From an uncultured Pseudomonadota bacterium (GTDB lineage: Bacteria > Bacillota > Sulfobacillia > JAUYEF01), in contig CAYQIY010000005.1 in NCBI GenBank assembly GCA_964417635.1, positions 14,070 to 78,069 of the forward strand: a stretch of 64,000 bases of DNA. Direction: 5' to 3'. Each line of letters begins with the position of its first letter. Positions within the stretch are counted from its first letter, which is position 1. The notes under the pieces were generated by a model. It had not been told where the DNA came from. It did not search any database and saw only the letters and a program-made list of their open reading frames with translations. The position numbers and the translations under genes were made by a program. Of this stretch, positions 1 to 58,274 are shown piece by piece.

Positions 1-1
1 C

Positions 2-955
2 CAGGATTCGCACGCTGCCCTGCTTTGCGCGGCGAGAAACGCCCGAGAAATGCTTTCAGCTGGCTTCACCACCGTAAGGGACTGCGGGGGAAAGAGCAAT
101 GAAGTGCTCTGCCTTCGCGATTTCATCTCAGCTGGCCAGATGGAAGGCCCGAGAATCATCGGCTGTGGCCAAGCGATTCTGGCGACGGGAGGCCACTTCA
201 CTGGCCGCGTGGCCGATGGGCCATGCGACGTGCGCAAGGCAGCACGCGAGATGGTGCACATGGGAGCCGACTTCATAAAGGTCATGGCTACCGGTGGGCT
301 GGGCAGACCCGGGGAGATGCCGGGAGCACAAGAAATGTTTCTTGATGAACTCACCGAATCTGCGCGAGTGGCGCATGCCCAGAATAGGAGAGTAGCTGCG
401 CACTGCCATGGAGCAGAGGGGATAGCCGACTCGCTGAGAGCCGGCATAGACTCTATCGAGCACGGAACATTCCTCAGCCAAACTGCTGCAGAAATGATGG
501 CAGAAAGAGGCGTGTTCTTGGTACCGACATTCGCCGCTTACAGCATCATATCCGATAGAGGAACAGACGCGGGTCTTGCACCTTATCTTGTGGAGCCTGC
601 AAGACAAGTGCTGGACGCCAAGATGTCTCGGTTTGCGTATGCGCTAAGTGCAGGAGTAAAGATTGCGTACGGCACAGACGCAGGCTCACCTCTCAATCCG
701 CACACAGACGTTTTGACCGAGGCAAAGCAGATGCAAGACGCCGGTATGTCGTCTGTGGATATAGTTGCTGCACTTACCGTTCGGTGTGCTGAACTGTTCG
801 GCGTAGAGACCAGCGTCGGATGCCTGATGCCCGGAAAAGAAGCGGATCTTGTGCTTGTCGAGGGGAATCCGCTCAAGGATTTGACCTCGCTAGCGAGAGT
901 CAGAATGGTACTTAAGCACGGAAAGATTGCCAAGAACCCAGTCAAGGAGGCGTGA
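2..955 (+). CDS. metal-dependent amidohydrolase (COG1228-like), 5' end cut by window edge
   Basis: Frame of ORF 50..955 stays open to nt 2; motifs TVRDCGG, HCHGAEG, GTDAG..NPH typical of amidohydrolase superfamily; 3-nt gap to next gene. Confidence 0.75.
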   Translation, partial: QDSHAALLCAARNAREMLSAGFTTVRDCGGKSNEVLCLRDFISAGQMEGPRIIGCGQAILATGGHFTGRVADGPCDVRKAAREMVHMGADFIKVMATGGLGRPGEMPGAQEMFLDELTESARVAHAQNRRVAAHCHGAEGIADSLRAGIDSIEHGTFLSQTAAEMMAERGVFLVPTFAAYSIISDRGTDAGLAPYLVEPARQVLDAKMSRFAYALSAGVKIAYGTDAGSPLNPHTDVLTEAKQMQDAGMSSVDIVAALTVRCAELFGVETSVGCLMPGKEADLVLVEGNPLKDLTSLARVRMVLKHGKIAKNPVKEA

Positions 956-958
956 GCG

Positions 959-1525
959 GTGGATAGGAGCAATGCTGACCAGAACCAAGCGATCAAGGAA
1001 TACGTCGACGGACTACGGCTTGAAGAGCCTGTGACCAGCGAAGACTTTAGAACTTTTGCTCGTGCGACCATTGGAGACAGGGGTTTGATGGTCTACCTCG
1101 CCTGGAAAGCGCTGAAGAAGCATCACCCAGAGATAGACGCGGAGGCAGTGTTACGCGAGGCGTGTTGGCAGTTCGGTTACATCAAGGGAGAACGTTTTGG
1201 AGACGTGGCCACACCTGCCGAATGGCTGAAGAATCTCTCGTCAAAAGCGGGTGTGCTGGCTTTTGATCAACAGTTTCTTGAGATGAACGACGAGAGAGCT
1301 GTTAAGATGTTTCGGTACTGTCCGCACGTAGAGGCGGCGCGGAGCGCAGGCGCTACGCCCGAAGAGCTCGCGCTGTTTTGCCGTGAGATCCTGATGGCTG
1401 CAGACGTTGGTACCATTGCGCCGTTTGAGGATCTTGAGATCGAGTTTCCGGGTAACACATGCGCTGAAGGCGGGCAGTGCATGATGACCGTAACCAAGAA
1501 GAGAGCGCATGCCGAGCAACCCTGA
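959..1525 (+). CDS. small conserved hypothetical protein (weak resemblance to ATC-hydrolase PF14196-like family)
   Basis: 188-aa ORF co-directional and 3 nt downstream of amidohydrolase; family assignment only from vague motif memory. Confidence 0.45.
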   Translation: MDRSNADQNQAIKEYVDGLRLEEPVTSEDFRTFARATIGDRGLMVYLAWKALKKHHPEIDAEAVLREACWQFGYIKGERFGDVATPAEWLKNLSSKAGVLAFDQQFLEMNDERAVKMFRYCPHVEAARSAGATPEELALFCREILMAADVGTIAPFEDLEIEFPGNTCAEGGQCMMTVTKKRAHAEQP

Positions 1526-1872
1526 CAGCCTCATTGTGGGTCAGGCACACTGAGTTTGTCCAAGAGACTCTGCGCAGTGCACTAGATCTGGAGGAAGCAA
1601 GCGCGTGCGCGCGGAATTCCAGAGCGGGAACCTGAGGCTCACGGAACTGTTCAGATCAAAGTGTTTGCACGCAAGAGCGCTTGCTCAAGCAGTTCAGACA
1701 GGAGGGCTCTAACCCAGTGAACACATCTACCTACGCCAAAGATCTGCTTGCAACAGCCCAAGGATGCATAGAGCAAGGAAGGTATCGCACGGCCACACGG
1801 CTTCTTGAGCAAGCGCTAAGACTAGAGCCCACACAAGAGATAGCGTGTTAGCTCGCGGTCGTAAAGGGTCTC

Positions 1873-4860
1873 TTGGGAGAGCACCTGGGCGTTATCGAGT
1901 GCCTGAAGAGTTGTGCCGAAGCAGATGAGCGTACGCCCGAGGTGAGTGCGCACATGAGCCTGGCACATTCGGCGCTCTCGCAGAGAGAACAAGCGTTCAA
2001 ATACGCTGCCCGTGCAGCATCAGGTTTTGAGTCCAAGGCTAAGTCGTCCGATGTGACTGCTGGCGCCAATCTGTCATCTTGGCTCGCAGAAGCGTCTTCT
2101 GTAATGCGAGCGCTCGGTGCATCCGGGGATCACGAAAAGGTCATGCAAGTCTTTGGTCTTGTACGTGAGAGTGCTGGCCCTGAGCAAATGTTCATAGCAG
2201 GTATTGCTGCGTGGAATCTTGGTGATTTCAAGCGTGCTTCTCAGATATGGAGAGAAGCGAGTGCGCTAAGAACAGATCTCCCAGTAGACCGGTTGGCGGC
2301 TGTTGCAGGCCTGTTGGATAGCGGACTCGTTCCGAACTTTGAACTGGATTACTGCCTGCCGAAAGATGAAGACCTTTTTGAGACGGATGAAGGAGAACAG
2401 GACGAAGACACGGCTCCAGAGTCTGCGACTCTGCATTCCATGGAGTTGGTACGCCGTTTGTATCTTGCTCTCTGCAGACCGAGCGTAGAGCGTGAGCGCC
2501 TGATATGGGAGATGGTTCTGTTCAGCGATAACTGGGGAGAGTCGCTCGCATCCAATTTGCTCAACGCGCCTGACGTGGGGTCTTCGCTGAAGACGGCAGC
2601 TGCGCAAGCTCTACTGCTGGCCGGCAAGATCGAACAGGATGAAGTCATCTGCATGAACTATCGAGGCGAAACACTCAGCGTGAGTCTTGACCGAATTGCA
2701 CTCGTAGAGCGTGACCCTATTTACGAGTCGAGAATGCTGGCGGCATTAGGCCTATTGTTGGAAGACAGGCCGCACGAAGCGCTTGTGGCTTTGGAGGACG
2801 TGGCGCCGCCCGGTGAAGCGTACCTGCCAGCTATGATCAATCGCGCGCGTCTGCTTGCGACCATGGGCTACCGAGACATGGCGAACTCGGTGCTCAAGCA
2901 TCTTGAGGATGCGCTACCGAATGAGCCAACCGTCAAGCAACTTGCGTCTGACCTGGAAGACGCGACACCGCTGCCGTATGGTATCAGTCGTTTCGGTAGA
3001 GATCATCTGAGGGGGCAGGAGGGACCGGCGTTAGAGCAACACATTGCGCTGGCGCAAGCGCTCAAGCGACAGGGATTCAGGTACATAAACGAGTTGTGTG
3101 CAGCGCACGCATTGACTGAAGCCGGTAAGAGACCGGCCAAAGAGCAGGCGCTCATGAAGATACTCTCTTCAGCAGAGCAGATTGCGACCAAACTCAGGGC
3201 TGAGACCGAGGCAGTGCTGAGAGCGGCCGAAAGCGTGTTGGATGCAGGCGGATGGATGAGATTAGACGATCTAGAACGGTTGTACGGACCGCGCGAAAAG
3301 GACGAGATATACAGGTGGTCGCCGAACGAGCAAACCACGCTGGGTCGTTTGGAAAGACTGGGGCTACTATTCAGCGGCCGGCTCTTTGCATCCAAAGATG
3401 ATGTAGCACTCGCCGTAATACCGGTTGATGTACGTGCCCATCTGGCCTCGGCGCTTGCGCTTCTTGGTAGAACCAAAAGGCAAATCGCCGAGCCTGCGCA
3501 CGTGAAAGAGCGCTCACAAGAGATCAACGAGCCAGCCTGTGTGAGGTTGCGACTTGAACTGAAGGACGTTAAGCCTACAGTGTGGAGACTACTTGAGGTG
3601 CCCGGTGACATCACGCTTCACGACCTGCACAAAGTCATTCAGATTGCAGCCGATTGGTCTGACTATCACCTGTACCGCTTCGAGATCTCCGGATTATGTT
3701 ACAGCCTGCCGAATGCTGAAGACAAGTGGCTCGGGATAGAGTGTATCAACTCCAAGAAGACGGTGCTTTCGAGCGTGCTCACAGAGGGTATGAGTTTCGA
3801 GTATGTGTACGACTTTGGAGATAACTGGGTGCACCTGCTGCAAGTGGAGCGTATCCACGTCCTAGAAGAGCCTATGAGTTGTGCAAGTTGTCTTGCGGGA
3901 GAGCGCGCATTTCCGCCCGAGGACGCTGGAGGTCTTCCGGGCTACGCAAGGCTTATGCGCATCTTGGACGATCCAGATCATCCGCAGCACGAAGAGTATA
4001 GCCTTTGGTCACAGGGCTGGGATCCCGACCACTTCAGCAATGCGGCGATAGACAAGCAACTTGCCAAGCTCACGTTGAGCCGTGGCGCAAAGGAATCGCG
4101 CAATAAGCGCAGCGCGAAGCCGAAGAGCAGTTCGCGAGATCTCGATGCACTGGCGGGGGAACCACGTGATTGGGCAGTCTTTGGCGACCCGTATGACGAG
4201 CTCTCCGCTGTGCTCCGGGAGATAGGCTGTACGACTTCGCCCCATACCTATAGAGGGCTCATTCTCGGAAGTTGCATGGCTGATCGAATGGTGCCGCTGA
4301 GTGAGATCATGCGCATCGCGTGGGAAGGCGAAGAATTTGTGTTCGAGTCACAAGAACACGTTATGAGGCTCCTCAGAGTGCTGGCAGCAGAGTGGAATAA
4401 GATTTCCTCATCTGTTCAGTCATGCAAGGTGAGCCTGTGGCCTTTCGGAAAGATCAGATCGAGCGACCATCTGATTCGCTATGCTGCCGCTCGAAAAGAT
4501 GAGATATCTGGTTTCTTGCACACATTTGAGATGGGTTCTGCGGAGTCTGGCCTCACGAACGTTGCCAAGGTATTGATTCCTAGGCTGCAAACTGTGCTTG
4601 ACTCGGTACTCAGGCTGCTCGAACACCTGCAATCATCCAAAGGTCGCGTAACGGGCTTGAGTGTGCTTGAAGATGAATTTCGGAAGATGGACCAAGTGGT
4701 CGAAAACACGCTGAACTTCATGGCAGCAGACCAAGAATTCCGGCGAACGCAGTCGGCGGTAGCAAAGAGCGGTCAAGCATCGAAAACACGCGTGGGACGC
4801 AATGAGCCTTGTCCATGCGGAAGCGGCAAGAAGTACAAACACTGCTGCGGAACAGCATGA
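1873..4860 (+). CDS. large multidomain protein: N-terminal TPR-like helices, PRiA4_ORF3 (PF07929-like) domain, C-terminal SEC-C metal-binding motif
   Basis: RLRLELKDVKPTVWRLLEVPGDITLHDLHKVIQIAADWSDYHLYRFEI and FEYVYDFGDNWVHLLQVERI match PRiA4_ORF3 signature; C-terminus NEPCPCGSGKKYKHCCG is a SEC-C motif; TTG start at 1873; in-frame TPR-like extension from GTG 1717 interrupted by TAG at 1849-1851. Confidence 0.7.
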   Translation: MGEHLGVIECLKSCAEADERTPEVSAHMSLAHSALSQREQAFKYAARAASGFESKAKSSDVTAGANLSSWLAEASSVMRALGASGDHEKVMQVFGLVRESAGPEQMFIAGIAAWNLGDFKRASQIWREASALRTDLPVDRLAAVAGLLDSGLVPNFELDYCLPKDEDLFETDEGEQDEDTAPESATLHSMELVRRLYLALCRPSVERERLIWEMVLFSDNWGESLASNLLNAPDVGSSLKTAAAQALLLAGKIEQDEVICMNYRGETLSVSLDRIALVERDPIYESRMLAALGLLLEDRPHEALVALEDVAPPGEAYLPAMINRARLLATMGYRDMANSVLKHLEDALPNEPTVKQLASDLEDATPLPYGISRFGRDHLRGQEGPALEQHIALAQALKRQGFRYINELCAAHALTEAGKRPAKEQALMKILSSAEQIATKLRAETEAVLRAAESVLDAGGWMRLDDLERLYGPREKDEIYRWSPNEQTTLGRLERLGLLFSGRLFASKDDVALAVIPVDVRAHLASALALLGRTKRQIAEPAHVKERSQEINEPACVRLRLELKDVKPTVWRLLEVPGDITLHDLHKVIQIAADWSDYHLYRFEISGLCYSLPNAEDKWLGIECINSKKTVLSSVLTEGMSFEYVYDFGDNWVHLLQVERIHVLEEPMSCASCLAGERAFPPEDAGGLPGYARLMRILDDPDHPQHEEYSLWSQGWDPDHFSNAAIDKQLAKLTLSRGAKESRNKRSAKPKSSSRDLDALAGEPRDWAVFGDPYDELSAVLREIGCTTSPHTYRGLILGSCMADRMVPLSEIMRIAWEGEEFVFESQEHVMRLLRVLAAEWNKISSSVQSCKVSLWPFGKIRSSDHLIRYAAARKDEISGFLHTFEMGSAESGLTNVAKVLIPRLQTVLDSVLRLLEHLQSSKGRVTGLSVLEDEFRKMDQVVENTLNFMAADQEFRRTQSAVAKSGQASKTRVGRNEPCPCGSGKKYKHCCGTA

Positions 4861-5008
4861 GGCGAAGCGGCGCATCTCTGGCTGCGACGCTCATGCGTGG
4901 GATGCACGAGCAGAGACGATACTTTCAAGAAGAGGCCGCAGCATGTTTGCCGCAGCCTCTCGGAATTCGGATCGGAAAGAGGGTAACTCTGAGCCAGTAG
5001 CGCGCTGT

Positions 5009-6448
5009 CTAGTGTTTTGGCAGCTGATCTAGTGGCGGTTTGGCCTCTTTCGGCATCTTGCAGACGTAGGGTTTGCCTGCAGTTGCAGTGTTGAACTCTT
5101 CGCGCGCCTTCTCAAGCACATCTGGGCTCTGCAGCAGTCTGCTTCCCGCAATCGCCATGCTCTTTGCTGCGAGAACCAGACCCTTGTGCGCTATGCTATG
5201 ACCGCTTGTGGCAACCACCTGCCATGCGTGGAAAGCCGCGCCAAGCGGAGCGCAGCAAGTGGTAATCTGTGCTGTGGGGGTTATCCAGCTCACATCAGAG
5301 ACGTCAGTCGAGCCGGCAAGCAACCTGCCCCTGTCGTAGGGCGGAGTGATCTGGTCGTCAAGGTACTTGTCGAAAAGGTTCATGGGTATGCCCCATGTGC
5401 GGAATACAGTTTCTTTCTGGCCGGGAGCGAAAGTATCGGTCAGCTCTTTAGCAAACTGGATCTCTTCTTCCGTCCACACTGGCGGGCCCACTTCTTGCAT
5501 CGCCTCATACATCAAGTCTGTCAACACCGTATTCGGCAGCATGTTGTAACAGGCCACGAGGATTTCCATCTTCATTTCGGTTTCGGTCATAAGTGCTGCG
5601 CCTTGTGCTATCTTGACTACGCGCTCGAAGATGTGGTCGACGTCTTCACGTCTTGGAGCTCTGACGTAATACCACGATTGAGCTTCGGCTGGCACAACGT
5701 TGGGCTCGCCGCCGCCCTTGGTTATGACGTAATGGATGCGTGCGTCAGAAATGACGTGTTCGCGGAGGAAGTTCACTCCTACGTTCATCAACTCTACCGC
5801 GTCAAGCGCGCTACGGCCTTGCTCAGGGTTGCCGGCCGCGTGTGCCGAACGTCCGTAGAACGTGAACTTCACCGAGTTCATTGCGTTCGAGGTGGAATAC
5901 CAACCCGTGTTGAACATCATCGGATGCCACGTGAGCGCACAGTCAAGATCGTCGAACAGACCGTCTCTTGCCATAAACACCTTGCCCACCAGAGTCTCTT
6001 CGGCAGGACAGCCGTAGAAGACTATGGTGCCCTTAAGCTTCTTTTCCTCCATCTCCTGCTTGAGGCCGATTACCGTGCCTAGCACTGCTGCGCCATACGT
6101 GTTGTGACCACAGCCATGACCCGGTGCGTCTTCTTTCACAGGTTCTTTCTTCGTAGACACTTTCTGGCTCAGATGCGGTAGAGCGTCGTACTCGGCGAGA
6201 AACCCGATCTTGGGCCTTCCTTCTCCCCAGGTTGCCACAAACGCGCTCGGCATCCCCGCCACAGCACGTTCAACCTTGAAGCCGGATTTCTCGAGTTCTT
6301 GAGCAAGCAACTCAGCAGACTTGAACTCCTGTAGACCTACTTCAGCGAATTCCCATATCTTATCGTTGATCTCGGCAAGGTATGCTTTGTTGTCTTCTAT
6401 CCACTTGGACGCAATCTTACCTCCCACTTCGTTCATCCTCCTGATCAT
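5009..6448 (-). CDS. M20 family amidohydrolase (AbgB / aminobenzoyl-glutamate hydrolase-like)
   Basis: GHGCGHNTYGAAVLG metal-binding motif, CPAEE; alternative GTG start at 6427 has better AGGAGG spacing. Confidence 0.8.
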   Translation of the reverse strand: MIRRMNEVGGKIASKWIEDNKAYLAEINDKIWEFAEVGLQEFKSAELLAQELEKSGFKVERAVAGMPSAFVATWGEGRPKIGFLAEYDALPHLSQKVSTKKEPVKEDAPGHGCGHNTYGAAVLGTVIGLKQEMEEKKLKGTIVFYGCPAEETLVGKVFMARDGLFDDLDCALTWHPMMFNTGWYSTSNAMNSVKFTFYGRSAHAAGNPEQGRSALDAVELMNVGVNFLREHVISDARIHYVITKGGGEPNVVPAEAQSWYYVRAPRREDVDHIFERVVKIAQGAALMTETEMKMEILVACYNMLPNTVLTDLMYEAMQEVGPPVWTEEEIQFAKELTDTFAPGQKETVFRTWGIPMNLFDKYLDDQITPPYDRGRLLAGSTDVSDVSWITPTAQITTCCAPLGAAFHAWQVVATSGHSIAHKGLVLAAKSMAIAGSRLLQSPDVLEKAREEFNTATAGKPYVCKMPKEAKPPLDQLPKH

Positions 6449-13047: not shown

Positions 13048-15264
13048 TTGATGAAACAACGCCGGCCGAAACCAGAACAACGCAACACAATGACTGAGGC
13101 GCGCACAGGAAGCGTGGTTTGGCGCCGCGCTGCCCATGCCCTCTTGGGATTAACGTTGGCTGTCTGGTTCGGCACCTTATTCAGCGTGCCTCCGGCAAGT
13201 CTTCACGGCTGGCTGGTGCAGCTGGGGTTTGCGTCTTTGGCTGCTGTGGCCTCGCTTCTTCTGGGTAACCTGATAAGCACTTTGCTAAGCCTATTTCACC
13301 GCAGAGTACCTGAACTTTATCGCTGGGTGTTGTTCGGTAGTGTGTTCTTGCTGTTCAATATGCTCATGCCGATGTTTCGGCAAGCATTTAACGTGGTCGT
13401 AGTTACAGCCTACGTTGTGGTTGTCGCCTCACTGTTTGGAGCAGGTATCGGCGGGTTGAACGCTTATGCTGGCCGAAAGCGCACGGTGGCAACTGCAATG
13501 CTGGCCGTGGGCGTAGTAGGTATTATCTGCGGGATCATCTGGTGCGTATGGCCGGGCCCCTCGCAGCAACTGGCATTCAGTATTCCAACCCCTTCTGCCG
13601 AGACGCTTGGTATCGGTAACCCGATAGAAAGCGGCATGTATTCGGTTTCATACCTGACTTACGGCAGTGGTACTGACAAGCGGCGCTCAGAGTACGCGCA
13701 AGATGTTACTATCCGCACTGAGCATGTCGATGTATCGCAGATGGTAAGTGGGGGAGGGGGCGTAACGGGCTGGCTTCGCCGAACGTATTGGGGGTTTGGG
13801 CTCACACAAGCCCCGCTCAATGCGCGAGTCTGGTACCCTGAGGGCACCGGTCCGTTTGCTCTTGTGCTAATTGTGCACGGCAATCACTCCATGGACGAGT
13901 TCTCAGATCCGGGTTACGAATATCTCGGGCAATTGCTCGCAACCCGCGGTTACATAGCGGCTTCGGTAGATCAGAACTTTCTCAACGGCGCGGGCGTGGT
14001 TGAAGCTGTGCTCGGCGGCCTAAAGCACGAAGATGATGCGCGTGCGTATTTGCTGCTTGAGCACTTACGGTTATGGCACGAATGGAACGATACGCCGGGA
14101 CACCTGTTTGATTCAAAGGTAGACACAAGCAGAATAGCGCTAATCGGGCACTCGCGTGGGGGAGAGGCAGCCGCAACCGCAGCTGCGTTCAACCGCTTGC
14201 CTTCGCATCCGGATAACGCCGCGATACGCATGAACCATGGTTTCGACATCTCCACAGTCATAGCCATGGCTCCGTCAGACGGACGCTACCTGCCCAGGCA
14301 GCAGAGGACAGAACTGGTGGACGTCAACTACCTGGTGCTCCAGGGTTCTGCCGACGGTGACACACGCTCATTCTCAGGTTCGAGGCAGTACGATAGGGTC
14401 ACCTTTTTGGGCAGCAAAGACTATCATAAGGCGGCCGTCTACATCTATGGTGCCAATCACGGGCAGTTCAACACCGAGTGGGGCTTGATAGACTTGGGCG
14501 CTGCGCTCTGGTTCATAAACAGAAAACAGATTATGCCCGAAGAGGAGCAACGCGCTCTCGCCAAACTGTTCATAAGCAGCTTCTTGGAACTCACACTTGG
14601 CGGCAGGCGAGAGTATACAGCAGTGTTCAGCGACCCGATGGTCGCACAACAGTGGGTGCCGCAAACTGCATATTTTGTGCAGTACCAAGCATCGGATATG
14701 ATAATGCTTGCGTCGTTTGAAGAGGATATGAACCTTGAGACCGCAACCTACCCTGGCGCGCGAATAACAGGCGCAAACCTTACAACTTGGCGTGAAGAGC
14801 CGCCGATGCTGGGCTGGGGTGGAAGGCGTGACAGCGTAGCTGTTAGGCTCGGATGGAACGGTGAGGGCGGCTCAACGGCCTCTTACACGCTTGAGATTGC
14901 AGATGGCATCCGAATTGGCCGTGACGATGCGCTTGTGTTCGACCTTGCGAGTCTTAGCAGGCGAGACATCGCGCTTGACTTCAGCGTCAAGATAGTAGAT
15001 CGAAACGGGAGAGAGGCTTCGCTTCCGCTCAGCCATATGACGCCACTGACACCGCAACTGCCTTATCGCATGTACAAGCCACCGCTGAGAGTGTCCTTTG
15101 AATCTGAGCCTGTGTTTGCTACCTACTTGTTCAAGGCAAGCCAGTTCATGGCCGAGAATCAAGAAATCGACCTCGGCAGCATAACGCAAATAGCATTCGT
15201 GTTCGACGGTTCTCCGATCGGCGAGATTTTTGCTGACAACATAGGTGTTCTGCTCGGCCGATAG
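13048..15264 (+). CDS. membrane-anchored alpha/beta hydrolase (N-terminal polytopic TM region + GHSRGG serine-hydrolase domain)
   Basis: ~5 predicted TM helices in first 170 aa; LIVHGNHS...ALIGHSRGG nucleophile elbow. Confidence 0.6.
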   Translation: MMKQRRPKPEQRNTMTEARTGSVVWRRAAHALLGLTLAVWFGTLFSVPPASLHGWLVQLGFASLAAVASLLLGNLISTLLSLFHRRVPELYRWVLFGSVFLLFNMLMPMFRQAFNVVVVTAYVVVVASLFGAGIGGLNAYAGRKRTVATAMLAVGVVGIICGIIWCVWPGPSQQLAFSIPTPSAETLGIGNPIESGMYSVSYLTYGSGTDKRRSEYAQDVTIRTEHVDVSQMVSGGGGVTGWLRRTYWGFGLTQAPLNARVWYPEGTGPFALVLIVHGNHSMDEFSDPGYEYLGQLLATRGYIAASVDQNFLNGAGVVEAVLGGLKHEDDARAYLLLEHLRLWHEWNDTPGHLFDSKVDTSRIALIGHSRGGEAAATAAAFNRLPSHPDNAAIRMNHGFDISTVIAMAPSDGRYLPRQQRTELVDVNYLVLQGSADGDTRSFSGSRQYDRVTFLGSKDYHKAAVYIYGANHGQFNTEWGLIDLGAALWFINRKQIMPEEEQRALAKLFISSFLELTLGGRREYTAVFSDPMVAQQWVPQTAYFVQYQASDMIMLASFEEDMNLETATYPGARITGANLTTWREEPPMLGWGGRRDSVAVRLGWNGEGGSTASYTLEIADGIRIGRDDALVFDLASLSRRDIALDFSVKIVDRNGREASLPLSHMTPLTPQLPYRMYKPPLRVSFESEPVFATYLFKASQFMAENQEIDLGSITQIAFVFDGSPIGEIFADNIGVLLGR

Positions 15265-16222: not shown

Positions 16223-19075
16223 GTGTCAGCCGCTTCTGGTAAGCTGGCGCGTGTGCTGTCGGCTTGCACTATTGCACTTGTGTTGGCACTGTGCGTCAAT
16301 CCCTTTGTCGTCTTGGCTTCGCCACTCACCTTTTCAATGATAGGCGATCTCGACGTCGATGGGCAGGTAGGTATCTTGGATCTTGCACTGCTCTCATCAG
16401 AATATCTGAAGACAAGCGTGCACACTGAATGGCAGTCAGAGTTTGACCTCAACGGTGACCTCATCATAGACCTGTACGATTTCGTCGTCATATCCAAGTG
16501 GATGGGTTGTCCGGGGGCTCCTCAGCAGGTCAGCGCACAGCCGGGGGATCGTCACGTGGTGGTGAGTTTCGTACCACCTCAAAGTGACGGTGGGCACACT
16601 ATCACGGGGTACACTGTGCGGGTGTACCGTGAGGCCGTGCTCGAAGCGCATCTTGGAACCACGGAGGCATCGGGCCCGGTCAGCGTAACCGGCCTCACGA
16701 ATGGGCTGGCGTATTCTTTCGGAGTGACCGCGCACAACAGCGCAGGCCGCAGCCTTGAGTCTTATACCTCCGAGGTCACACCTGCAAGCGTACCCGATGT
16801 GCCCACCGGCGTTAGCGCAAGCGCGGGCGACGCTCAAGCGCTTGTGACGTTTGTGCCTCCAGAACAAGATGGTGGCAGTGCAATCTTGTACTATACCGTA
16901 TACGTCTACCAGACAGGTGCGCATGAGCCGCACGTGTTGGTGACAGCATCTGAGTCACCTGTGCTCATAACAGGTCTTACGAACGACGCATCGTACGTGT
17001 TCAGCGTTGCTGCGACCAACGCTATTGGAGACAGCGCGCAATCCGCTCTATCCGAGCCGGTAGTGCCCTCAAGGTATACGCTTATTCCGTTCTCGGGAAG
17101 TCTGTGCTATTGCGGTCTTCCCATTACTCACGAAGGCGCGTTTACACATACAGTCGAATTCGAAGAAGACGGCCGAACGGTGAGCGCTCTCGCCATTTTT
17201 ACGCCCGCTCAGTTGCAGCATCTTGCGATGCACCGAAACAGTGACGCTATACTAATGAACGATCTAGATTTTTCGATCTTTCCGCTTGGTAATGTTGAAG
17301 GTACTCCCATGCACGCGCTTGCATCTGCGGTCTCGGCCGGAATATCGTATTCCGGCCACTCTGTCGCGAACTTCGTGGGTGGCAATTTCGTGCCTATTGG
17401 CTCATCTTCCACGAACAGCTACACCGGCACTCTCTACGGTAACGGCAAGAGTATCTCGGGTCTCATAATAGCCGCGGAAAACGCCGCCAACGTTGGGCTC
17501 TTCGGCCACGTGACCGGTGGCGTCATAAAGGATGCGCACATAACAAGCGGGCAGGTGTCTGCCATTCCGGGCACGCTCCAGCCTATCGGTAACTGCGTCG
17601 GCAGTTTTGTTGGGTTGAGTAAGGGCGGAACGCTGCACGCGGTGAGCAACGCCGCATCGGTGAGCGGCTACTTCCGGGTGGGTGGACTTGTCGGCGAAAA
17701 CGACGCCGGGACGATCAGTGCAAGTTACAATAGCGGTGCGGTGTCCGGTACACGCGACTACATCGGAGGCATAGTGGGAAACAGCTTCAACGCTTGCAAT
17801 GTGATTGATTGCCATAATGCGGGTGAAGTCACCGGATACGAACGTGTCGGCGGTATTGTGGGATATCTCTTCGGCTATGACTACGCGAGGCCTGCGTTGA
17901 GCCTGAGTTCAAACAGCGGCCGGATAACGGCCACCCGAAACAGCGCAGGCGGTATTGTTGGGCAGAACGCCTGGGGCACAGTAGATAACAGTCATAACAG
18001 CGCCGATGTGAGCGCAAGAGCGGACGTTGGCGGTGTTATAGGTTCACACTTTGGTGTGGCAAGTGTGCTCAGCAACTCGGGATGCGTAAGTGGCTACGAC
18101 AGCGTTGGCGGTGTAGTGGGTAACCACGTCAAAGGCACCCTGGCCAACAGCTACAACACTGGTAGCGTAACGGGCACAAACTACTACACCGGAGGCGTGG
18201 TTGGCTGGAACAACGATGATGCAATCGTCGACGAGGTGTATAACGTTGGTTCGGTTCAGGGTAGATATCACGTGGGAGGAGTCGTAGGTTGGAACGCCGG
18301 AGGTGGGTGGAATACCGATGGCGGCGTCGTCAGTTTGAGCCATAACATGGGCGTTGTCACCGGAACCGGGAGTGTGGGCGGCGTAGTTGGCAACAACAGT
18401 TACGACAGCAGCTACCGAAAGGGCGGTAGTGTAAGCGGAGTGTACAACACCGGTGCTGTGTTGGCAACCTCAATCAGCGCAGGCGGAATAGTGGGCTATA
18501 ACAGCGGCCAGGTCGGCGAGAGCTACAACGCCGGTACGGTCAAGGCTACTTCATACGCCGGAGGAGTGATCGGCACAAACAGCACGACCGGCACGGTTAC
18601 GGACTGCCACTGGCTGCTAGGAACAAACCTCAGACCCGGTTCAGAAGAACTCGGTATCGGTGATGGTAGCGGTACCACCTCTACGTTTGCCGATGCACAG
18701 ATTGGTTCAATCCACGTTAGTATGTCGGATATCAGTGCGAGCGCAGGCGGAATGGCGTCAGGTGCTATAACCGGCATAGAGTTCAGCGCGTTCGCTGGTG
18801 CGAGTCCTCCCGAATTCGGAGTGCTTCAGGCGTCTTATTCGGGAACCCAAGGAGAGATAGTCATAAGCGTACACTGTGTGCCCAGCACAACACTGTCGGT
18901 GGAAACCTCGACAGACCTTCCGGCGCTTGTCAGTACCGGAGGCACTGAAGTTTTGCCTGAACCTGTCGGAGACGGCACTTACAGCATCACCGTGACTTCT
19001 GGTACATGGGTGTTGATTCGTGCTCTGGCTGAACAACCTGTACTAAGCCGTACGTACACGATATACGCGAAGTAG
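16223..19075 (+). CDS. secreted surface protein: signal peptide, type-I dockerin-like module, two fibronectin type III domains, long array of GLUG-motif repeats
   Basis: GTG start 7 nt after GGAGGTG; dockerin Ca-binding pairs DLDVDGQVGILDL and DLNGDLIIDLYDF; Fn3-like PGAPQQVSAQPGDRHVVVSF...GYTV; repeated (V/R)GG(I/V)VG...N.G segments. Confidence 0.75.
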   Translation: MSAASGKLARVLSACTIALVLALCVNPFVVLASPLTFSMIGDLDVDGQVGILDLALLSSEYLKTSVHTEWQSEFDLNGDLIIDLYDFVVISKWMGCPGAPQQVSAQPGDRHVVVSFVPPQSDGGHTITGYTVRVYREAVLEAHLGTTEASGPVSVTGLTNGLAYSFGVTAHNSAGRSLESYTSEVTPASVPDVPTGVSASAGDAQALVTFVPPEQDGGSAILYYTVYVYQTGAHEPHVLVTASESPVLITGLTNDASYVFSVAATNAIGDSAQSALSEPVVPSRYTLIPFSGSLCYCGLPITHEGAFTHTVEFEEDGRTVSALAIFTPAQLQHLAMHRNSDAILMNDLDFSIFPLGNVEGTPMHALASAVSAGISYSGHSVANFVGGNFVPIGSSSTNSYTGTLYGNGKSISGLIIAAENAANVGLFGHVTGGVIKDAHITSGQVSAIPGTLQPIGNCVGSFVGLSKGGTLHAVSNAASVSGYFRVGGLVGENDAGTISASYNSGAVSGTRDYIGGIVGNSFNACNVIDCHNAGEVTGYERVGGIVGYLFGYDYARPALSLSSNSGRITATRNSAGGIVGQNAWGTVDNSHNSADVSARADVGGVIGSHFGVASVLSNSGCVSGYDSVGGVVGNHVKGTLANSYNTGSVTGTNYYTGGVVGWNNDDAIVDEVYNVGSVQGRYHVGGVVGWNAGGGWNTDGGVVSLSHNMGVVTGTGSVGGVVGNNSYDSSYRKGGSVSGVYNTGAVLATSISAGGIVGYNSGQVGESYNAGTVKATSYAGGVIGTNSTTGTVTDCHWLLGTNLRPGSEELGIGDGSGTTSTFADAQIGSIHVSMSDISASAGGMASGAITGIEFSAFAGASPPEFGVLQASYSGTQGEIVISVHCVPSTTLSVETSTDLPALVSTGGTEVLPEPVGDGTYSITVTSGTWVLIRALAEQPVLSRTYTIYAK
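17400..18600 (+). repeat. degenerate tandem coding repeats (GLUG-motif units, ~25-30 aa period) inside surface-protein gene
   Basis: Recurrent GG(I/V)VG / SYN.G / V.G units visible in translation. Confidence 0.5.
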
Positions 19076-29127: not shown

Positions 29128-31587
29128 CTATTCGTGTGCGTACTCTCGCATTGAAGAGACGAAACCGGGCACAAGCCGTGGGTCGAACTGAGTGCCTGTG
29201 CATCGCTCGATTTCATCCAGAGCACCGTCGTGCGTCCTCGCGCCGCGGAACGGGCGGGGGCCAGTCATGCTGCAGAACGCATCCACCAGAGAAAACACAC
29301 GGCACTCAGTAGGTATCTCGTCACCTGCAAGACCCAGCGGATAACCGGTGCCGTCCCATCGTTCATGATGCTTGAGGATCAGATCCGCAACTTCAGCCAG
29401 GTCGGTGCAGTGAGACGCAATGCGATGCCCCTTCTCGGGGTGGGTGTGCACAAGCGCTCGCTCTGCGTTTGTGAGCGGACCTTCTTTGAAAAGCACATGG
29501 TCGGGTATAGATATGGTGCCGATATCATGCACATGTGCCAATAAGGATAGTCTGTGTACCTGTGACTCAGTCAGCCCTAGTCTACGACCCACAAAGCATG
29601 CAAGCGCGGAGAGTCTGTGCGTATTTTCAGATGAGTCGTAGTCCTTCTTCGCCATGTTCAATAACAGTGCATCGGCGATTCGTTTGTGCGCCTCGTTCCT
29701 GCGCGCAATCTTGTCTCTGTACATCAGGTCATCTGCGGTCTGCACAGCGCGGGCGATTTCGGATGGGCTTTGTGCCATCGAAAGCCCGATAGACATCACG
29801 AGCGGAATCTCGGGATTCTGCAGATTGTATTCTTCCACCCTATCTCTAAGGTGTTTTGACATTAGCTTGCCTTGTTCTTGATCTGTGCGAGGCATCAACA
29901 CAACAAACTCGTCTCCACCAAACCGCGCGAGGCTATCTTGCGGCCTGACTGCTTGGCGCAGCACATTCGCACATGCGATCAACATCTCATCGCCTTTTTG
30001 GTGACCCAGTGAGTCGTTTATGAACTTGAGAGCATCAAGGTCTACTGAGATGACGCTTACCGGGAATTCGTCGGGGCGTCTCATCGAACGCATCTGGTCT
30101 TCTAAGTATGCGCGGTTGTGCAGCCCGGTCAGCCTGTCTTCAAAACTGAGCTGCCATAGTTTGGCTTCGTGTTGCTTTCGTTGGGTGACCTCAGTGGCGA
30201 TCTCAAGCCTTACCATGCGGCCGTCGACCCATCGAATTGCCCTCGCGTGGCAGTCGAACCAACGCCCAAGCGATGTGTTGTGAAACTCCCAGTGATGCAC
30301 ACCTACTGGTTCGTTGTTGGCATCAAGCAGCTCCGAACTGATGCATGTGCTACACTCAGATGAAGCCTGAGCGTGCACCGATTCCCAGCATTTTTCGCCC
30401 ACCACTTCTCCAACCGAGTCACGTGCGCGCCTGTTTTGAAACAGCACTTCGTTTGTTGCTAGGTCGATCACATAAACGTGTGCATCCATGCTGTCCAGCA
30501 CGCTGAGCAGCATCTGGCGCGAGGCTTGAAGCTCTTGCTCTGAGTTTTTGCGTGCGGTGATGTCGTGCCCGAGAGATAATCTGCCGATGGGCGCGCGGTT
30601 CTTGCCCATAACATCGGATACCGTTACGAAGAAGTGCTTCGTATGGCTACCGGTGTTCACCGCGAGGTCAAAACTGGTCACACCGCCGTCTTGAACTGCC
30701 CTGACCCACTGCGGCCATGCGCTGAGCGCTTGTTCAACTGGTCTACCGAGCACCTTAGGAGTGAGACTTTCGTGGCCTGTGGCTAGCAACGCCACTGCGG
30801 CGGGGTTTGCATCGACGAGTCTGCCTTGCATATCGCACACGAGCACCACGTCTTTGGCGTTTTCAATCACTTGCTCTCGCGCTATCGGCCACACTTCAAG
30901 CAGACGGTAGCGGAATATTCCCCATGCTATCAGCAGGCCGGATGGGATGAACGTTATGACCGTAGATCCGTAGGGCCTAAAAGGGTGAACACCCAGGAAC
31001 AGCGCGACGTTTGCGATAAAAGGCAGCAAGAACGCGAGCAAGAACAATACTGCCTGGCTTCTGTGAAGCTTGTTTGCGCGTCTTACCGAGCGAGCCAGTA
31101 GAAAGCCTGCGGCACCAAGCAGCAGGTACGAATAGACAATGAATACCAAAAACAAGGGGTTTCGCGTTACCTGTGTGAGTGCAAATCCTTCGACCACAAC
31201 CAGGCTGACATCCCTGCGTGCGAGATAATGGAAATCGTTTGTCCATATGAGCAATAGCGCGAACACCGAAGGTAACGCCAGGAACGGTAGGTGGCTCTGT
31301 TGTAGCCTTATGCCTGTCTCATCGAATTCGATTGCAAGCCAGAGCCATACGGGTGGGGAAAGCAGTATTCCTATTTGCTGCACGTTAAGCCAGAAGATTC
31401 TCGATGCGAGTTGCTCGCTGGATATCTCGATCGTGTAGCTGAGAGACCACAGAAGCGCAAAGCCCATGAGCACGCCAAAGCAGCGAGCGCCTCTCACGCC
31501 GGTATGTCGCAGAGCATATAACGCAAGTAGCAGCGTCACTGCGATGGAAAGAAAGAGTAATGCATCGTACACAAACTTTATGTCCAT
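29128..31587 (-). CDS. membrane sensor protein: N-terminal polytopic TM domain, PAS domains, GGDEF diguanylate cyclase and HD-GYP phosphodiesterase domains
   Basis: RFGGDEFVV (GGDEF), HHERWDGTGYP (HD-GYP), ~7 N-terminal TM helices. Confidence 0.8.
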   Translation of the reverse strand: MDIKFVYDALLFLSIAVTLLLALYALRHTGVRGARCFGVLMGFALLWSLSYTIEISSEQLASRIFWLNVQQIGILLSPPVWLWLAIEFDETGIRLQQSHLPFLALPSVFALLLIWTNDFHYLARRDVSLVVVEGFALTQVTRNPLFLVFIVYSYLLLGAAGFLLARSVRRANKLHRSQAVLFLLAFLLPFIANVALFLGVHPFRPYGSTVITFIPSGLLIAWGIFRYRLLEVWPIAREQVIENAKDVVLVCDMQGRLVDANPAAVALLATGHESLTPKVLGRPVEQALSAWPQWVRAVQDGGVTSFDLAVNTGSHTKHFFVTVSDVMGKNRAPIGRLSLGHDITARKNSEQELQASRQMLLSVLDSMDAHVYVIDLATNEVLFQNRRARDSVGEVVGEKCWESVHAQASSECSTCISSELLDANNEPVGVHHWEFHNTSLGRWFDCHARAIRWVDGRMVRLEIATEVTQRKQHEAKLWQLSFEDRLTGLHNRAYLEDQMRSMRRPDEFPVSVISVDLDALKFINDSLGHQKGDEMLIACANVLRQAVRPQDSLARFGGDEFVVLMPRTDQEQGKLMSKHLRDRVEEYNLQNPEIPLVMSIGLSMAQSPSEIARAVQTADDLMYRDKIARRNEAHKRIADALLLNMAKKDYDSSENTHRLSALACFVGRRLGLTESQVHRLSLLAHVHDIGTISIPDHVLFKEGPLTNAERALVHTHPEKGHRIASHCTDLAEVADLILKHHERWDGTGYPLGLAGDEIPTECRVFSLVDAFCSMTGPRPFRGARTHDGALDEIERCTGTQFDPRLVPGFVSSMREYAHE

Positions 31588-55298: not shown

Positions 55299-55434
55299 GC
55301 CATCTGCTTCGCGGCTATTCTGACCTGACATATCTAGCACAAAACCTTCACAAACCTCGTACCACGTGTACACAGAATACGCACAGCTAGAAGGTAGACT
55401 TAACTCAGGTCAGATTCGGAAGGAGGTGGCTTTA

Positions 55435-55806
55435 ATGAAAAGGAGCATGATTGCGGTTATGGTCGCAGCGGCACTGTTGCTTGTGGCAGGGCAGGCGATG
55501 GCCCAGAGCGCTTCAGAAGCGAGTCGTGATTGCGTAGTGCTGCCTGAGCACAAAACGCAGGTGGCAGAGATTATCGAGGGGTTTCAAGCGCGGATGCAAG
55601 AACTAAGAGACAGAATCGCCCAACTGCGCGGAACCGGTAGCACCGATGCAATTCAGCAGATCCATGACGAGAGGGTTCTCATACACAGAGAGAAGATCGA
55701 AGCCATGGCTCCATACGTAAGAGAGGATGCGCTAGAAGCGTTCTTAGACAAGAGCCTGGCGCGCGCTAGGAGAACGGCCCAGCATACAAGGTTGCAGGCC
55801 AACTAG
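55435..55806 (+). CDS. small secreted alpha-helical protein (possible Spy/CpxP-like periplasmic protein)
   Basis: Signal peptide MKRSMIAVMVAAALLLVAGQAMA; ATG 55435 after AGGAGGTGG; family guess weak. Confidence 0.5.
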   Translation: MKRSMIAVMVAAALLLVAGQAMAQSASEASRDCVVLPEHKTQVAEIIEGFQARMQELRDRIAQLRGTGSTDAIQQIHDERVLIHREKIEAMAPYVREDALEAFLDKSLARARRTAQHTRLQAN

Positions 55807-55824
55807 CTCGACCAGACCTTTATG

Positions 55825-55853
55825 CAGGCCCCGCGTGTTGTGTGCGGGGCCTG
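55825..55853 (+). terminator. intrinsic terminator
   Basis: Perfect 10-bp stem CAGGCCCCGC-gtgttgtgt-GCGGGGCCTG then UGUGCAUGUUG. Confidence 0.55.
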
Positions 55854-55922
55854 TGTGCATGTTGCACCCTGTCCCGCACGGACTCTGCCGATGTGTTGAC
55901 GGCGCGACGAAAGTCGCATACA

Positions 55923-55944
55923 AATGAATGAACGTTCATTCATT
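55923..55944. promoter_or_regulatory. 22-bp perfect palindrome AATGAATGAACGTTCATTCATT
   Basis: Seen directly; candidate operator ~75 nt upstream of conserved element copy 1. Confidence 0.4.
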
Positions 55945-56019
55945 CTAGGAGAGATGCTGATGCGCGAGCAAGAAGACAAGAAGGAACAGATAAGGCGGGC
56001 AGCGGCGCGGGTCAACCCT

Positions 56020-56182
56020 GAGAGACGTGATAGGGTAGTCGGGAGCAAATCGGTGGGGATTCACCCTTGACGGGACCATTGTATCGCATAGATTCAACCA
56101 TATATGCAAGGTCGTAAGACTCGTAGATCAACTACGAGAACGAGAGATCTAGAGTCCTAAACTCAAAAGATGGAGATAGGAG
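56020..56182 (+). ncRNA. conserved non-coding element copy 1 (candidate structured cis-regulatory RNA / 5' UTR), ends in the SD of the cupin gene
   Basis: 5' block GAGAGACGTGATAGGGTAGTCGGGAGCAAATCGGTGGGGATTCACCCTTGACGGGAC and 3' block AACTACGAGAACGAGAGATC...ACTCAAAAGATGGAGATAGGAG also occur at 57854-58020 with the same ~165-nt spacing. Confidence 0.4.
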
Positions 56183-56191
56183 TGAGAGTAC

Positions 56192-56482
56192 GTGAAAGTA
56201 GTTGATCTGGACAACCTCAGAGTCGATGGTCGCCGCGCAATGCTCCAGAGCGCGGCAAGACACAAAGTGATTCTCGTTGAACTCGATGCAGGTGGCGAGA
56301 TCGAAAAATGTGAGATGAACTGTCACGTGCTATTCTTGGTGCTCGACGGATCGGCAGAAGTGTGGGTAGATGGTGAGAAGACGACTATCTCAAAGCACTC
56401 ATGTCTTATGACAGAGCCTGCCACTCTCGCTATGCAGTCTTCCGACGGGGTGCGTTTCGTTGGTGTGCAGATTGATGTCTAG
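56192..56482 (+). CDS. cupin-domain protein (96 aa)
   Basis: Small beta-rich protein with cupin-like motif pattern; GTG start 9 nt after GGAGATAGGAG. Confidence 0.55.
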   Translation: MKVVDLDNLRVDGRRAMLQSAARHKVILVELDAGGEIEKCEMNCHVLFLVLDGSAEVWVDGEKTTISKHSCLMTEPATLAMQSSDGVRFVGVQIDV

Positions 56483-56505
56483 CGGAAGGGGCCAATGAAC
56501 GCAAT

Positions 56506-56533
56506 CAACCAGCCGCAGGAAGGCGGCTGGTTG
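56506..56533 (+). terminator. intrinsic terminator after cupin gene
   Basis: Perfect 11-bp stem CAACCAGCCGC-aggaag-GCGGCTGGTTG then AUGUAUU. Confidence 0.5.
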
Positions 56534-56856
56534 ATGTATTGAAGGGAGTAGCTTCGCGGTTCTATCCGCAAACATGCTATCCGACTGAGACCCAGAGTGT
56601 AGAGAACGCTCAAACCAAGACCTTCGGGAACCACGTTAGTGAAACCAAACTATCCAATCCCCTGCTCTGCCTGGCGAAGCTGCTCCCTGCTATAATTATA
56701 GAATATTGCAAGAGTAAAAACAACAACAATTAGTGTGACCTGAGATGGTAATTGCTGTAGACACGTTAATGGCCTAAAGGATACACTTTAGATAGATGCA
56801 TTGCCCGAACCACTCCGGATCCCGCGATTCTCAGATAGTACAAGGGGGATATAGGC

Positions 56857-57171
56857 GTGAAACTGGTTCTGGCAGTGGTGCAGGACAAAGACTGGCCGCG
56901 GCTTCAGGCTGCGCTGACCCGACAAGGGTTTCGCGTAACAAAACTCTCAAGCACGGGAGGGTTTCTGAGGCAAGGCAACACTACCCTTTTCGTGGGAACA
57001 GAGGATAGCCGCGTGGACAGCATCATAGAAATCGTGCGCGAGACATGTAGGTCGAGAGAGCAATACGTCGATGCTTCGGTATCCGGACAAGATGCAGATA
57101 TGCCGGTGAAGGTAGTGATCGGCGGAGCTACGCTTTTTGTCGTCGCGCTTGAGCGGATGGAGAGAATCTAG
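56857..57171 (+). CDS. darA: PII-like cyclic-di-AMP receptor DarA (YaaQ/DUF970 family)
   Basis: MKLVLAVVQDKD..FRVTKLSSTGGFLRQGNTTLFVGTEDSRV...GGATLFVV closely parallels B. subtilis DarA; GTG start after AAGGGGGAT. Confidence 0.75.
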   Translation: MKLVLAVVQDKDWPRLQAALTRQGFRVTKLSSTGGFLRQGNTTLFVGTEDSRVDSIIEIVRETCRSREQYVDASVSGQDADMPVKVVIGGATLFVVALERMERI

Positions 57172-57221
57172 GAGCACCATCTGTTAGTGCGAACACTACA
57201 CCCGGTCTATTGGCGGGTGTC

Positions 57222-57249
57222 GCTGGTTCGGACCCAGCATTGACCACCA
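57222..57249 (+). other. tRNA-like 3' fragment (T-arm GCTGG-TTCGGAC-CCAGC, acceptor 3' strand and CCA) lacking a matching 5' half; possible att-site remnant
   Basis: Seen directly; T-loop non-canonical, no complementary 5' acceptor upstream. Confidence 0.3.
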
Positions 57250-57351
57250 TTCATTTGCCTAGCAGAAGCATGGGTCTTGGTGACGGACTCCTGCTTCTCT
57301 TTGCTGTGCCGTGGGGCCACGACGCGGCCTGTTGTGCTCACAAGTTTCCGA

Positions 57352-57474
57352 TGTGCCCGAAGCCATGGCGTCGAACGCCGCGGCAGCCGCCTCTTGCATG
57401 CTGGGAATCACATGTGAGTAGGTGTCCAGAGTCGTCGCAATCCCGCTCTTATGGCATGGCTTCCGGAAATCACC
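57352..57474 (-). pseudogene. C-terminal remnant of tyrosine recombinase / phage integrase
   Basis: Minus-strand translation ...CHKSGIATTLDTYSHVIPSMQEAAAAAFDAMA reproduces the integrase C-terminal catalytic-Tyr block; no upstream integrase body. Confidence 0.6.
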
Positions 57475-57853
57475 GAGCCCGATAGTCTCGTCAACGAAGA
57501 ACTCCATTTGCCGGTCATTCGAGCAGACCGGTTGCATCGGTTTAGGCACGAGGTTGGCCTGGTGCCGGTCTTCGGTCCGGTCAAGCGTCACCTGATTTGC
57601 CCTTTGGTCTGTTGGCTTCGTGTTCTATCACATGTAACTTTCACTGCTCACTTAAGTGGGCCACCTGTGTCGTGTTCTTTGTCTGAAGGCGTGTATGCCG
57701 AGTCAAGAAATCTGACACATCTCAGGCAACAACAAAACCCTCTTGGGCGGGGATGCTGTCATCCTCCATTAGGGCTTGGACCATGCAGTAAAGCATACAG
57801 CATCCCACCCGATCCCAAGAGGCAGAACGAAGGACTGTAAGGGCAAAGACCGT

Positions 57854-58020
57854 GAGAGACGTGATAGGTAGTCGAGAGCAAGCCCGTGGGGATTCACCCT
57901 TGGCGGAACTCCAACTGCAGAGACTCCAACAACTAGATACTCAGTACTGCACCTTAGGATTTGACATTTAACTACGGGATGGAGAGATCCGCAGTCGTAG
58001 ACTCAGAAGACGGAGATAGG
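57854..58020 (+). ncRNA. conserved non-coding element copy 2; its SD is followed by an 8-codon uORF (ATG 58025) and then ~250 nt before the LuxR-membrane gene
   Basis: Same conserved 5' and 3' blocks as 56020-56182; compensatory U-A to C-G change flanking the GGUG-GGGAUU-CACC hairpin. Confidence 0.4.
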
Positions 58021-58274
58021 CAGAATGGGCGTTGTGATGTGCTTGTACTGAGTAGTGCCTGCTCAAAGAGGCCATATCGCTTGGGTCTATTCCCGGTATC
58101 GCGTCTTGGGTGGATAATCTGGTCTGTGTGTTGCAGGAGGTTCTGGTAGAGCAGTGAATCTATCCCAGTGGAGAACCATATTCCGTGTTTTGAACTGTAC
58201 CGGGCAGTGCGCCGCACGCTGGCTGCGGGCGGAGACTCCGATAACAGCAGCGGCCTTACAGAGGAGAATGGGCC

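Follow-up and report, generated by a model that had tools for sequence, protein, structure and literature searches.

The E. coli protein YecA (AscA) is a standalone protein of ~220 amino acids (aa), which consists of a chaperone-like N-domain and a metal-binding domain that coordinates Zn/Fe and binds SecB and ribosomes (bioRxiv 10.1101/613315; 10.1101/2020.07.21.215244). The literature on the PRiA4_ORF3 family consists essentially of annotation mentions and one association with transposon passengers, the PRiA4_ORF3-like passenger proteins of the ISAzba1 group (PMC3942029). Here we analyse a gene that joins both kinds of domain in one reading frame and is interrupted by an in-frame amber codon. 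It lies in a 64,000-nt stretch of contig CAYQIY010000005.1 from an uncultured bacterium, which we call the window and to which all coordinates refer. The C-terminal ~220 residues of the gene follow the same order as YecA, a UPF0149-like bundle and then a SEC-C motif (CXCX8CC) that retains the conserved Ser and Tyr. In contrast to the standalone YecA, this module is the tail of a fusion of more than 1000 aa, and its UPF0149 match is below the Pfam cutoff. The PRiA4_ORF3 domain is shared with the MM3350-like proteins (PDB 2i1s) by both sequence and fold, while the transposase or mobile-element context of the ISAzba1-group passengers is absent from the window. The N-terminal part has its own relatives, standalone proteins of ~625–680 aa with tetratricopeptide repeats (TPR) and a winged-helix-like domain (loci L083 and L086-L119). 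These are homologous to residues 1 to ~580 of the read-through product, including the first TPR, end in ...KVAVIPVELR..L and contain no PRiA4, UPF0149 or SEC-C domain.

Two described situations resemble the interruption itself. Programmed recoding (pyrrolysine at UAG, or programmed read-through) likewise places an in-frame UAG within a conserved open reading frame (ORF); in the window, however, TAG is the terminator used most, searches for recoding signals gave none, and the orthologues do not share the stop. Young single-nonsense pseudogenes of bacteria and the amber restarts of the lacI type share with this gene an ORF that is intact except for a single derived stop, with candidate restart codons shortly 3´ of it. 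Unlike a typical young pseudogene, all known copies of the gene carry independent lesions, and two amber alleles occur in one species. We consider that the window probably carries a young nonsense allele of an accessory gene that is being lost.

The upstream frame and the lesions of the family

The read-through gene comprises 1047 codons, from GTG 1717 to TGA 4858-4860. The GTG opens a run of 44 sense codons (VNTSTYAKDLLATAQGCIEQGRYRTATRLLEQALRLEPTQEIAC) that is ended by the in-frame TAG 1849-1851, past which the same frame continues uninterrupted up to the TGA. The earliest start codon 3´ of the TAG is TTG 1873, which yields a product of 995 aa, and it is this TTG-1873 form that the public collection holds. 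This layout, with AGGAGGG at 1701-1707 preceding the GTG, agrees in every element with an earlier reading of the sequence (hereafter the original prediction).

The upstream 44 aa align with residues 1–44 of an orthologous product, P0010 (locus L080), with 52% identity, no gaps, an E-value of 5e-15 and aligned starts. P0010 residues 46–314 match residues 1–271 of the 995-aa query, so that P0010 has 45 additional N-terminal residues, and the TAG falls on its Ser45, inside a conserved ACSLA motif. The original prediction proposed that the upstream frame is a genuine TPR-like extension and that orthologues should be compared for a sense codon at the TAG. P0010, the closest orthologue, begins at the codon that corresponds to GTG 1717 and continues past the TAG position without a stop, and the codon aligned to the TAG encodes Ser in both orthologue loci, as TCG in L080 and TCT in L082. 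A profile built from 20 distant N-termini of the family scores the upstream frame at 16.3 bits, against 7.0 bits for the best of 1000 composition-matched shuffles, and gives no score for any other frame of 1500-1900. Approximately 38 standalone relatives of the N-terminal module also continue through this region in a single frame. As judged from these alignments, the 44 upstream codons are the true ancestral N-terminus.

A coincidental upstream frame, with TTG 1873 as the native start, would fit the product on record and the orthologue P0003 (L082), which is called from an ATG equivalent to TTG 1873. The colinear, start-to-start homology and the profile test refute it. Moreover, instead of the unrelated sequence that such a start would imply, the region 5´ of P0003 contains the same homologous N-terminus, broken by its own TAG. 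This explanation can practically be dismissed. The public gene call hides the amber interruption, the true N-terminus lies 156 nt upstream of the called one, and annotation as a disrupted gene is warranted.

The sister copies are also damaged. An exhaustive HMMER search over 1.84 billion cluster representatives returned 17,510 matches, nearly all of which contain the PRiA4 domain alone, and the full architecture is present in only two other lineages among these representatives. In L080 (Logan SRR6186653), a G-run has one G too many, which splits a single gene into the neighbouring ORFs P0010 and P0002; removal of the extra G gives a 1056-aa ORF with the full architecture restored. In L082 (JGI 3300045950), the P0003 gene has the in-frame homologous N-terminus upstream with its TAG at codon ~24, has lost ~85 aa from the middle domain, and carries a C-terminal deletion that throws FGRNDPCPCGSGKKYKHCC, the SEC-C motif, out of frame. 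A further contig of the same species as the window, L081 (Ga0334891_046799), is identical to window 4360-5963 apart from C>A at 4781, which changes codon 1022 from TCG to TAG (GQA*KTRVGRNEPCPCG...) with loss of the SEC-C motif. Each known full-architecture copy bears at least one independent lesion, at differing sites. The lesions total at least six in three lineages, including two TCG-to-TAG amber alleles within one species. This pattern of recurrent inactivation is curious and rests on three lineages.

Two further observations concern these copies. In both copies with an N-terminal amber, the lesion is closely followed by a start codon, which takes one and the same place in the alignment (ATG 183-185 in L082 and TTG 1873-1875 in the window), while L080, with its uninterrupted N-terminus, has CTT there; the shared position could be chance or a selected restart site. 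The homologue P0032, which ends before PRiA4, was considered as another disruption and rejected, as the standalone family naturally ends there.

Probable gene loss and the alternatives

On present evidence, the central result is unexceptional: a young pseudogene or loss-of-function allele. As in a nonsense-disrupted pseudogene, the premature stop is derived and the relatives have an unbroken ORF at this point. We infer a loss of function, with relaxed or loss-favouring selection. A single C-to-A substitution would have converted Ser codon 45 (TCG) of the 1047-codon gene into the amber, and ribosomes initiating at the ancestral GTG 1717 would, barring suppression, release a 44-residue peptide. 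The remaining 1002 codons have stayed open and the domains have kept good scores, so the lesion is likely to be recent. The independent lesions in the sister lineages, the second amber in the same species and the lack of synteny together suggest an accessory gene that is being lost. This accessory character is also apparent from the absence of a conserved partner gene and the restriction of the full architecture to two other lineages. The fusion of the TPR/winged-helix-like module with PRiA4_ORF3-UPF0149-SEC-C would then be such a gene undergoing loss, with the codon-45 amber as one of several independent knock-outs in a small gene family.

Several points weigh against this explanation. Apart from the TAG, the 1002 codons are undamaged, PRiA4 (181.6 bits) and SEC-C (40.3 bits) score like those of relatives, and the function of the window copy may persist. 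A strong Shine-Dalgarno (SD) sequence with ATG 1954, 103 nt 3´ of the stop, could drive a truncated protein. The lesions of L080 and L082 each come from single metagenome assemblies, and the codon-1022 and codon-45 amber alleles may or may not share a haplotype.

The original prediction offered nonsense mutation, sequencing error and read-through as causes of the stop, of which the evidence favours a real nonsense mutation. The TAG is one base away from a sense codon, as expected of an error in an intact gene. A metagenome scan, however, recovered a separately assembled contig (L085, Ga0334888_1026428) that overlaps window 1-2264 and carries the same TAG, although it differs by two single-nucleotide polymorphisms, at 1153 and 1590. 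A random consensus error is unlikely to be repeated in an independent assembly that differs elsewhere, which makes a sequencing or assembly error extremely improbable. TAG is usually the rarest stop codon in bacteria. Among the 34 long ORFs of the window (~55% GC), 15 end with TAG, 13 with TGA and 6 with TAA; the TAG-ended ones include 13048-15264, which bears out the earlier statement that TAG is a normal stop here. The TAGs at 28183 and 63338 end complete domains (Amidohydro_1 343/345 and FtsX 119/120, respectively) and are followed by unrelated genes. There is no tRNA within the 64-kb window, no Rfam element was found, RNA structure 3´ of the TAG is not significant (z +0.85), and an in-frame UAG is not conserved at this position in L080 or L082. 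Since TAG is an ordinary terminator, the stop is unconserved and the window holds no recoding signals, recoding is unsupported, and decoding of TAG as a sense codon was rejected. Some 1047-aa protein could nevertheless be made by leaky near-cognate decoding or by a suppressor tRNA encoded elsewhere in the genome, possibly as a device for low-level or conditional expression. All three nonsense lesions seen (window, L081 and L082) are TAG, and both ambers within the species are TCG>TAG changes, which represent 4.7% of the gene's nonsense paths (a mild oddity, p~0.05). The +4 base after the premature TAG is C, and TAG-C occurs in 3 of 17 genuine TAG stops here, joint-least common with A. TAG, however, is in any case the outcome of 47% of all nonsense paths, and efficient suppression of the commonest true terminator, which ends complete domains, would be harmful. 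Furthermore, the stop positions differ between orthologues, and the frameshift of L080 and the deletions of L082 are beyond repair by suppression. Read-through is therefore very unlikely. The compared sequences show that TAG 1849-1851 is real and derived, a change from Ser to amber within a gene that was ancestrally continuous.

A real nonsense mutation would also be compatible with a gene that is still used, through reinitiation at TTG 1873, 22 nt past the stop, or an independent start at ATG 1954, to give a protein of 995 or 968 aa from which only one to two N-terminal TPR repeats are missing. Bacteria are known to restart translation after early nonsense codons, as in lacI. The anti-SD duplex energies are -10.8 kcal/mol for GTG 1717, -4.5 kcal/mol for TTG 1873 and -10.2 kcal/mol for ATG 1954 (GAGGTG, 1939-1944), compared with a median of -9.85 kcal/mol for the window genes; -10 kcal/mol is reached by ~1.5% of random positions. 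The SD of ATG 1954 is thus on par with those of real genes here, whereas that of TTG 1873 is weak. ATG 1954 and its SD are missing from L080 (residue Q) and L082 (residue A) and could be compensatory; L082 has an ATG exactly at the TTG 1873 equivalent; and the downstream 1002 codons with all their domains are intact. However, a chance SD and start within ~35 codons has a probability of roughly 3–5%, as estimated from the background frequency, so the site is no more than suggestive. The whole family conserves the first TPR, whose loss therefore probably matters, and the same-species amber that removes SEC-C and the breakage of both sister lineages fit loss better than rescue. Continued use through a restart is unlikely, though it deserves serious consideration. 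A more speculative and rather improbable possibility is that the repeated knock-outs result from selection for silencing a costly or toxic TPR-PRiA4-YecA-like factor tethered to the ribosome or SecB, as in a conflict or contingency gene, rather than from neutral decay, with conditional suppression of the amber alleles as a variant. It is raised by the at least six recent independent lesions in a gene whose >1000-codon ORF survived ~55% sequence divergence.

Domain architecture of the read-through product

PRiA4_ORF3 (PF07929) covers residues 557–723 with an E-value of 1.4e-53 and 181.6 bits (cutoff 26.6), over profile positions 3–171 of 173. The region matches PDB 2i1s by sequence at 1e-31, and Foldseek aligns it with 2i1s_A at E 6.5e-13, with a target-normalised template modelling (TM) score of 0.84 and a root mean square deviation of 2.4. 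SEC-C (PF02810) covers residues 976–993 (2.8e-10; 40.3 bits, cutoff 20.4). The tail, CPCGSGKKYKHCC, contains the CXCX8C(H/C) motif together with the conserved Ser and aromatic residue, which are the features that define the SecA-type metal-binding domain (10.1101/613315), and its PDB sequence matches are the metal-binding domains of SecA and YchJ. Between these two domains, UPF0149 (PF03695) scores 20.7 bits (E 5e-4) in the window against a gathering score of 25, while the orthologue P0002 reaches 39.9 bits and P0018 reaches 73.2 bits; AlphaFold2 (AF2) predicts a helical bundle for this region.

The TPR-like label of the original prediction falls short of the Pfam thresholds on the window sequence itself: the 44-mer reaches 22 bits at best (cutoffs 23.5–27), the 995 aa have no Pfam TPR match at E<=1, and the N-terminal part downstream of the stop scores at most 16.4 bits. 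It is upheld through the homologue P0032, which passes Pfam TPR_1, TPR_2 and TPR_19, with its first repeat, the segment homologous to the 44-mer, above the TPR_1/TPR_2 thresholds, and through the predicted fold. In the AF2 model of the post-stop residues (mean predicted local distance difference test, pLDDT, of 78), the N-terminal part consists of all-helical repeats, which Foldseek matches to TPR superhelices, among them 8chy, SKI3, Ctr9 and OGT, with E~1e-4. The middle domain has no Pfam match. Modelled alone, it has a pLDDT of 85 and a predicted TM score of 0.81, it weakly resembles MarR/PadR winged-helix regulators in Foldseek (E 0.01–0.1, TM ~0.4), and it is kept directly 5´ of PRiA4 in P0009, P0012 and P0017.

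Table 1. Features of the interrupted gene in the window.
Feature	Position	Strand	Evidence
Shine-Dalgarno AGGAGGG of the ancestral start	1701-1707	+	anti-SD duplex energy -10.8 kcal/mol
Ancestral GTG start and 44-codon N-terminal remnant (TPR repeat 1 and beginning of repeat 2)	1717-1848	+	gapless match to P0010; profile score
Premature amber TAG, from a Ser codon (TCG inferred)	1849-1851	+	TCG in L080 and TCT in L082 at the aligned codon; TAG also in L085
TTG, start of the 995-aa product on record	1873-1875	+	weak SD, -4.5 kcal/mol; ATG in L082, CTT in L080
SD-like GAGGTG (1939-1944) and in-frame ATG 1954	1939-1956	+	candidate internal start, 968-aa product; SD -10.2 kcal/mol
TPR-like alpha-solenoid	1717-2961 (after the stop: 1852-2961)	+	AF2; Foldseek; homology to ~38 standalone TPR-family ORFs
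Middle alpha/beta domain, winged-helix-like	3049-3462	+	AF2; weak Foldseek matches; no Pfam match
PRiA4_ORF3 (MM3350-like) domain	3541-4041	+	Pfam PF07929, 181.6 bits; PDB 2i1s by sequence and fold
Helical bundle, UPF0149 (YecA N-domain)-like	4198-4770	+	Pfam 20.7 bits (cutoff 25); AF2
Codon 1022 (TCG, Ser), polymorphic	4780-4782	+	TAG in L081, second sample of the same species
SEC-C / SecA-type metal-binding motif (CPCGSGKKYKHCC)	4798-4851	+	Pfam PF02810, 40.3 bits; PDB sequence matches
Natural stop TGA	4858-4860	+	end of the open frame

The order PRiA4_ORF3, UPF0149 and SEC-C recurs alone in P0018 (447 aa), P0015 (998 aa) and P0004; compared with P0018 and P0015, the window gene adds the N-terminal TPR and winged-helix-like module. 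This N-terminal module also occurs alone, in proteins of ~460 or ~625–680 aa. By its sequence relationships, the window gene joins two modules that are found recombined in various arrangements. The domain combination, which the original prediction called unusual, is thus recurrent in its C-terminal half; what is rare is the additional fusion with the TPR/winged-helix-like part. The complete five-module architecture (TPR solenoid, winged-helix-like domain, PRiA4_ORF3, UPF0149-like bundle and SEC-C) is undescribed and very rare. In three other loci (L106 2207-4351, L108 6861-9050 and L109 7410-9599), a SEC-C motif (GRN[ED]PCPCGSGKKYKKCC) is fused N-terminally to the TPR module, which gives independent domain-shuffling evidence linking this module to the SecA-type metal-binding motif.

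By analogy with YecA, the tail suggests tethering to ribosomes or SecB, in which case the TPR module would act as a scaffold for protein interactions; both roles are drawn from domain homology. The five-module fusion links the uncharacterised PRiA4_ORF3 and TPR/winged-helix-like families to a YecA-like ribosome- and SecB-binding tail, and hints that PRiA4_ORF3 proteins may act at or near the translation or secretion machinery.

Genomic context and other observations

The neighbours of the gene in the window are ordinary, with amidohydrolase, peptidase and Opp-transporter genes. A conserved partner gene, for which the original prediction had proposed a search, did not emerge across 40 loci; no neighbour was conserved either, and the genes directly downstream are of mixed kinds. 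The window showed no notable flanking repeats that would indicate a mobile element, and the N-terminal module has no relatives in viral contigs or plasmids. Membership of a defence system was rejected: the PADLOC matches are confined to the region of the SEC-C tail, with E1-E2 and E2 covering residues ~969–994 and the longest, PDC-S12, covering 934–992, i.e. SEC-C and ~40 preceding residues. A scan of a genome collection gave 473 relatives, which are matches of the PRiA4 domain alone, with no full-length orthologue. A word-index search for homologues returned irrelevant matches only, as candidates were probably swamped by common SEC-C/TPR words.

A 17-nt inverted repeat (16/17 complementary; 1676-1692 and 1801-1817, with a 108-nt loop) flanks the SD and GTG 1717. 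The stem is present in both the minimum free energy and centroid folds, with a z-score of -1.06 for the region, and has no equivalent in L080. If the 5´ arm is extended to 1673-1693, its reverse complement would encode LLEQALL, which resembles the LLEQAL of 1801-1818. This long-range stem was rejected as a regulatory RNA because it is neither significant nor conserved.

Among the relatives, locus L084 (97-5110) encodes P0007, a 717-aa protein with an intact TPR-middle-PRiA4 arrangement and no YecA-like tail, between a DruA (Druantia) gene and a Polbeta/NTP_transf_2 and HepT-like pair; this setting looks like a defence island, unlike the surroundings of the window gene. In Pseudonocardia sp. 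ICBG1293, at least 14 PRiA4_ORF3 loci (L016-L018, L064, L069-L075 and L077-L079) have identical match statistics, which suggests an amplified mobile element carrying PRiA4_ORF3.

Elsewhere in the window, genes have strong and widespread SD motifs, and the starts that give the longest ORF are often GTG or TTG. A 950-aa ORF (16223-19075, + strand) contains a dockerin type I domain, two fibronectin type III domains and GLUG motifs, and its product looks like a secreted or cell-surface protein. The 3 kb at 55300-58300 have no ORF of at least 150 aa and several short ORFs without a family match, together with a complete cyclic-di-AMP receptor gene (CdAMP_rec, 56857-57168, 2.8e-35). On the - strand, 29128-31587 encodes an 819-aa signalling protein with 7TM-HisKA_7TM, PAS, GGDEF and HD-GYP-type HD_5 domains.

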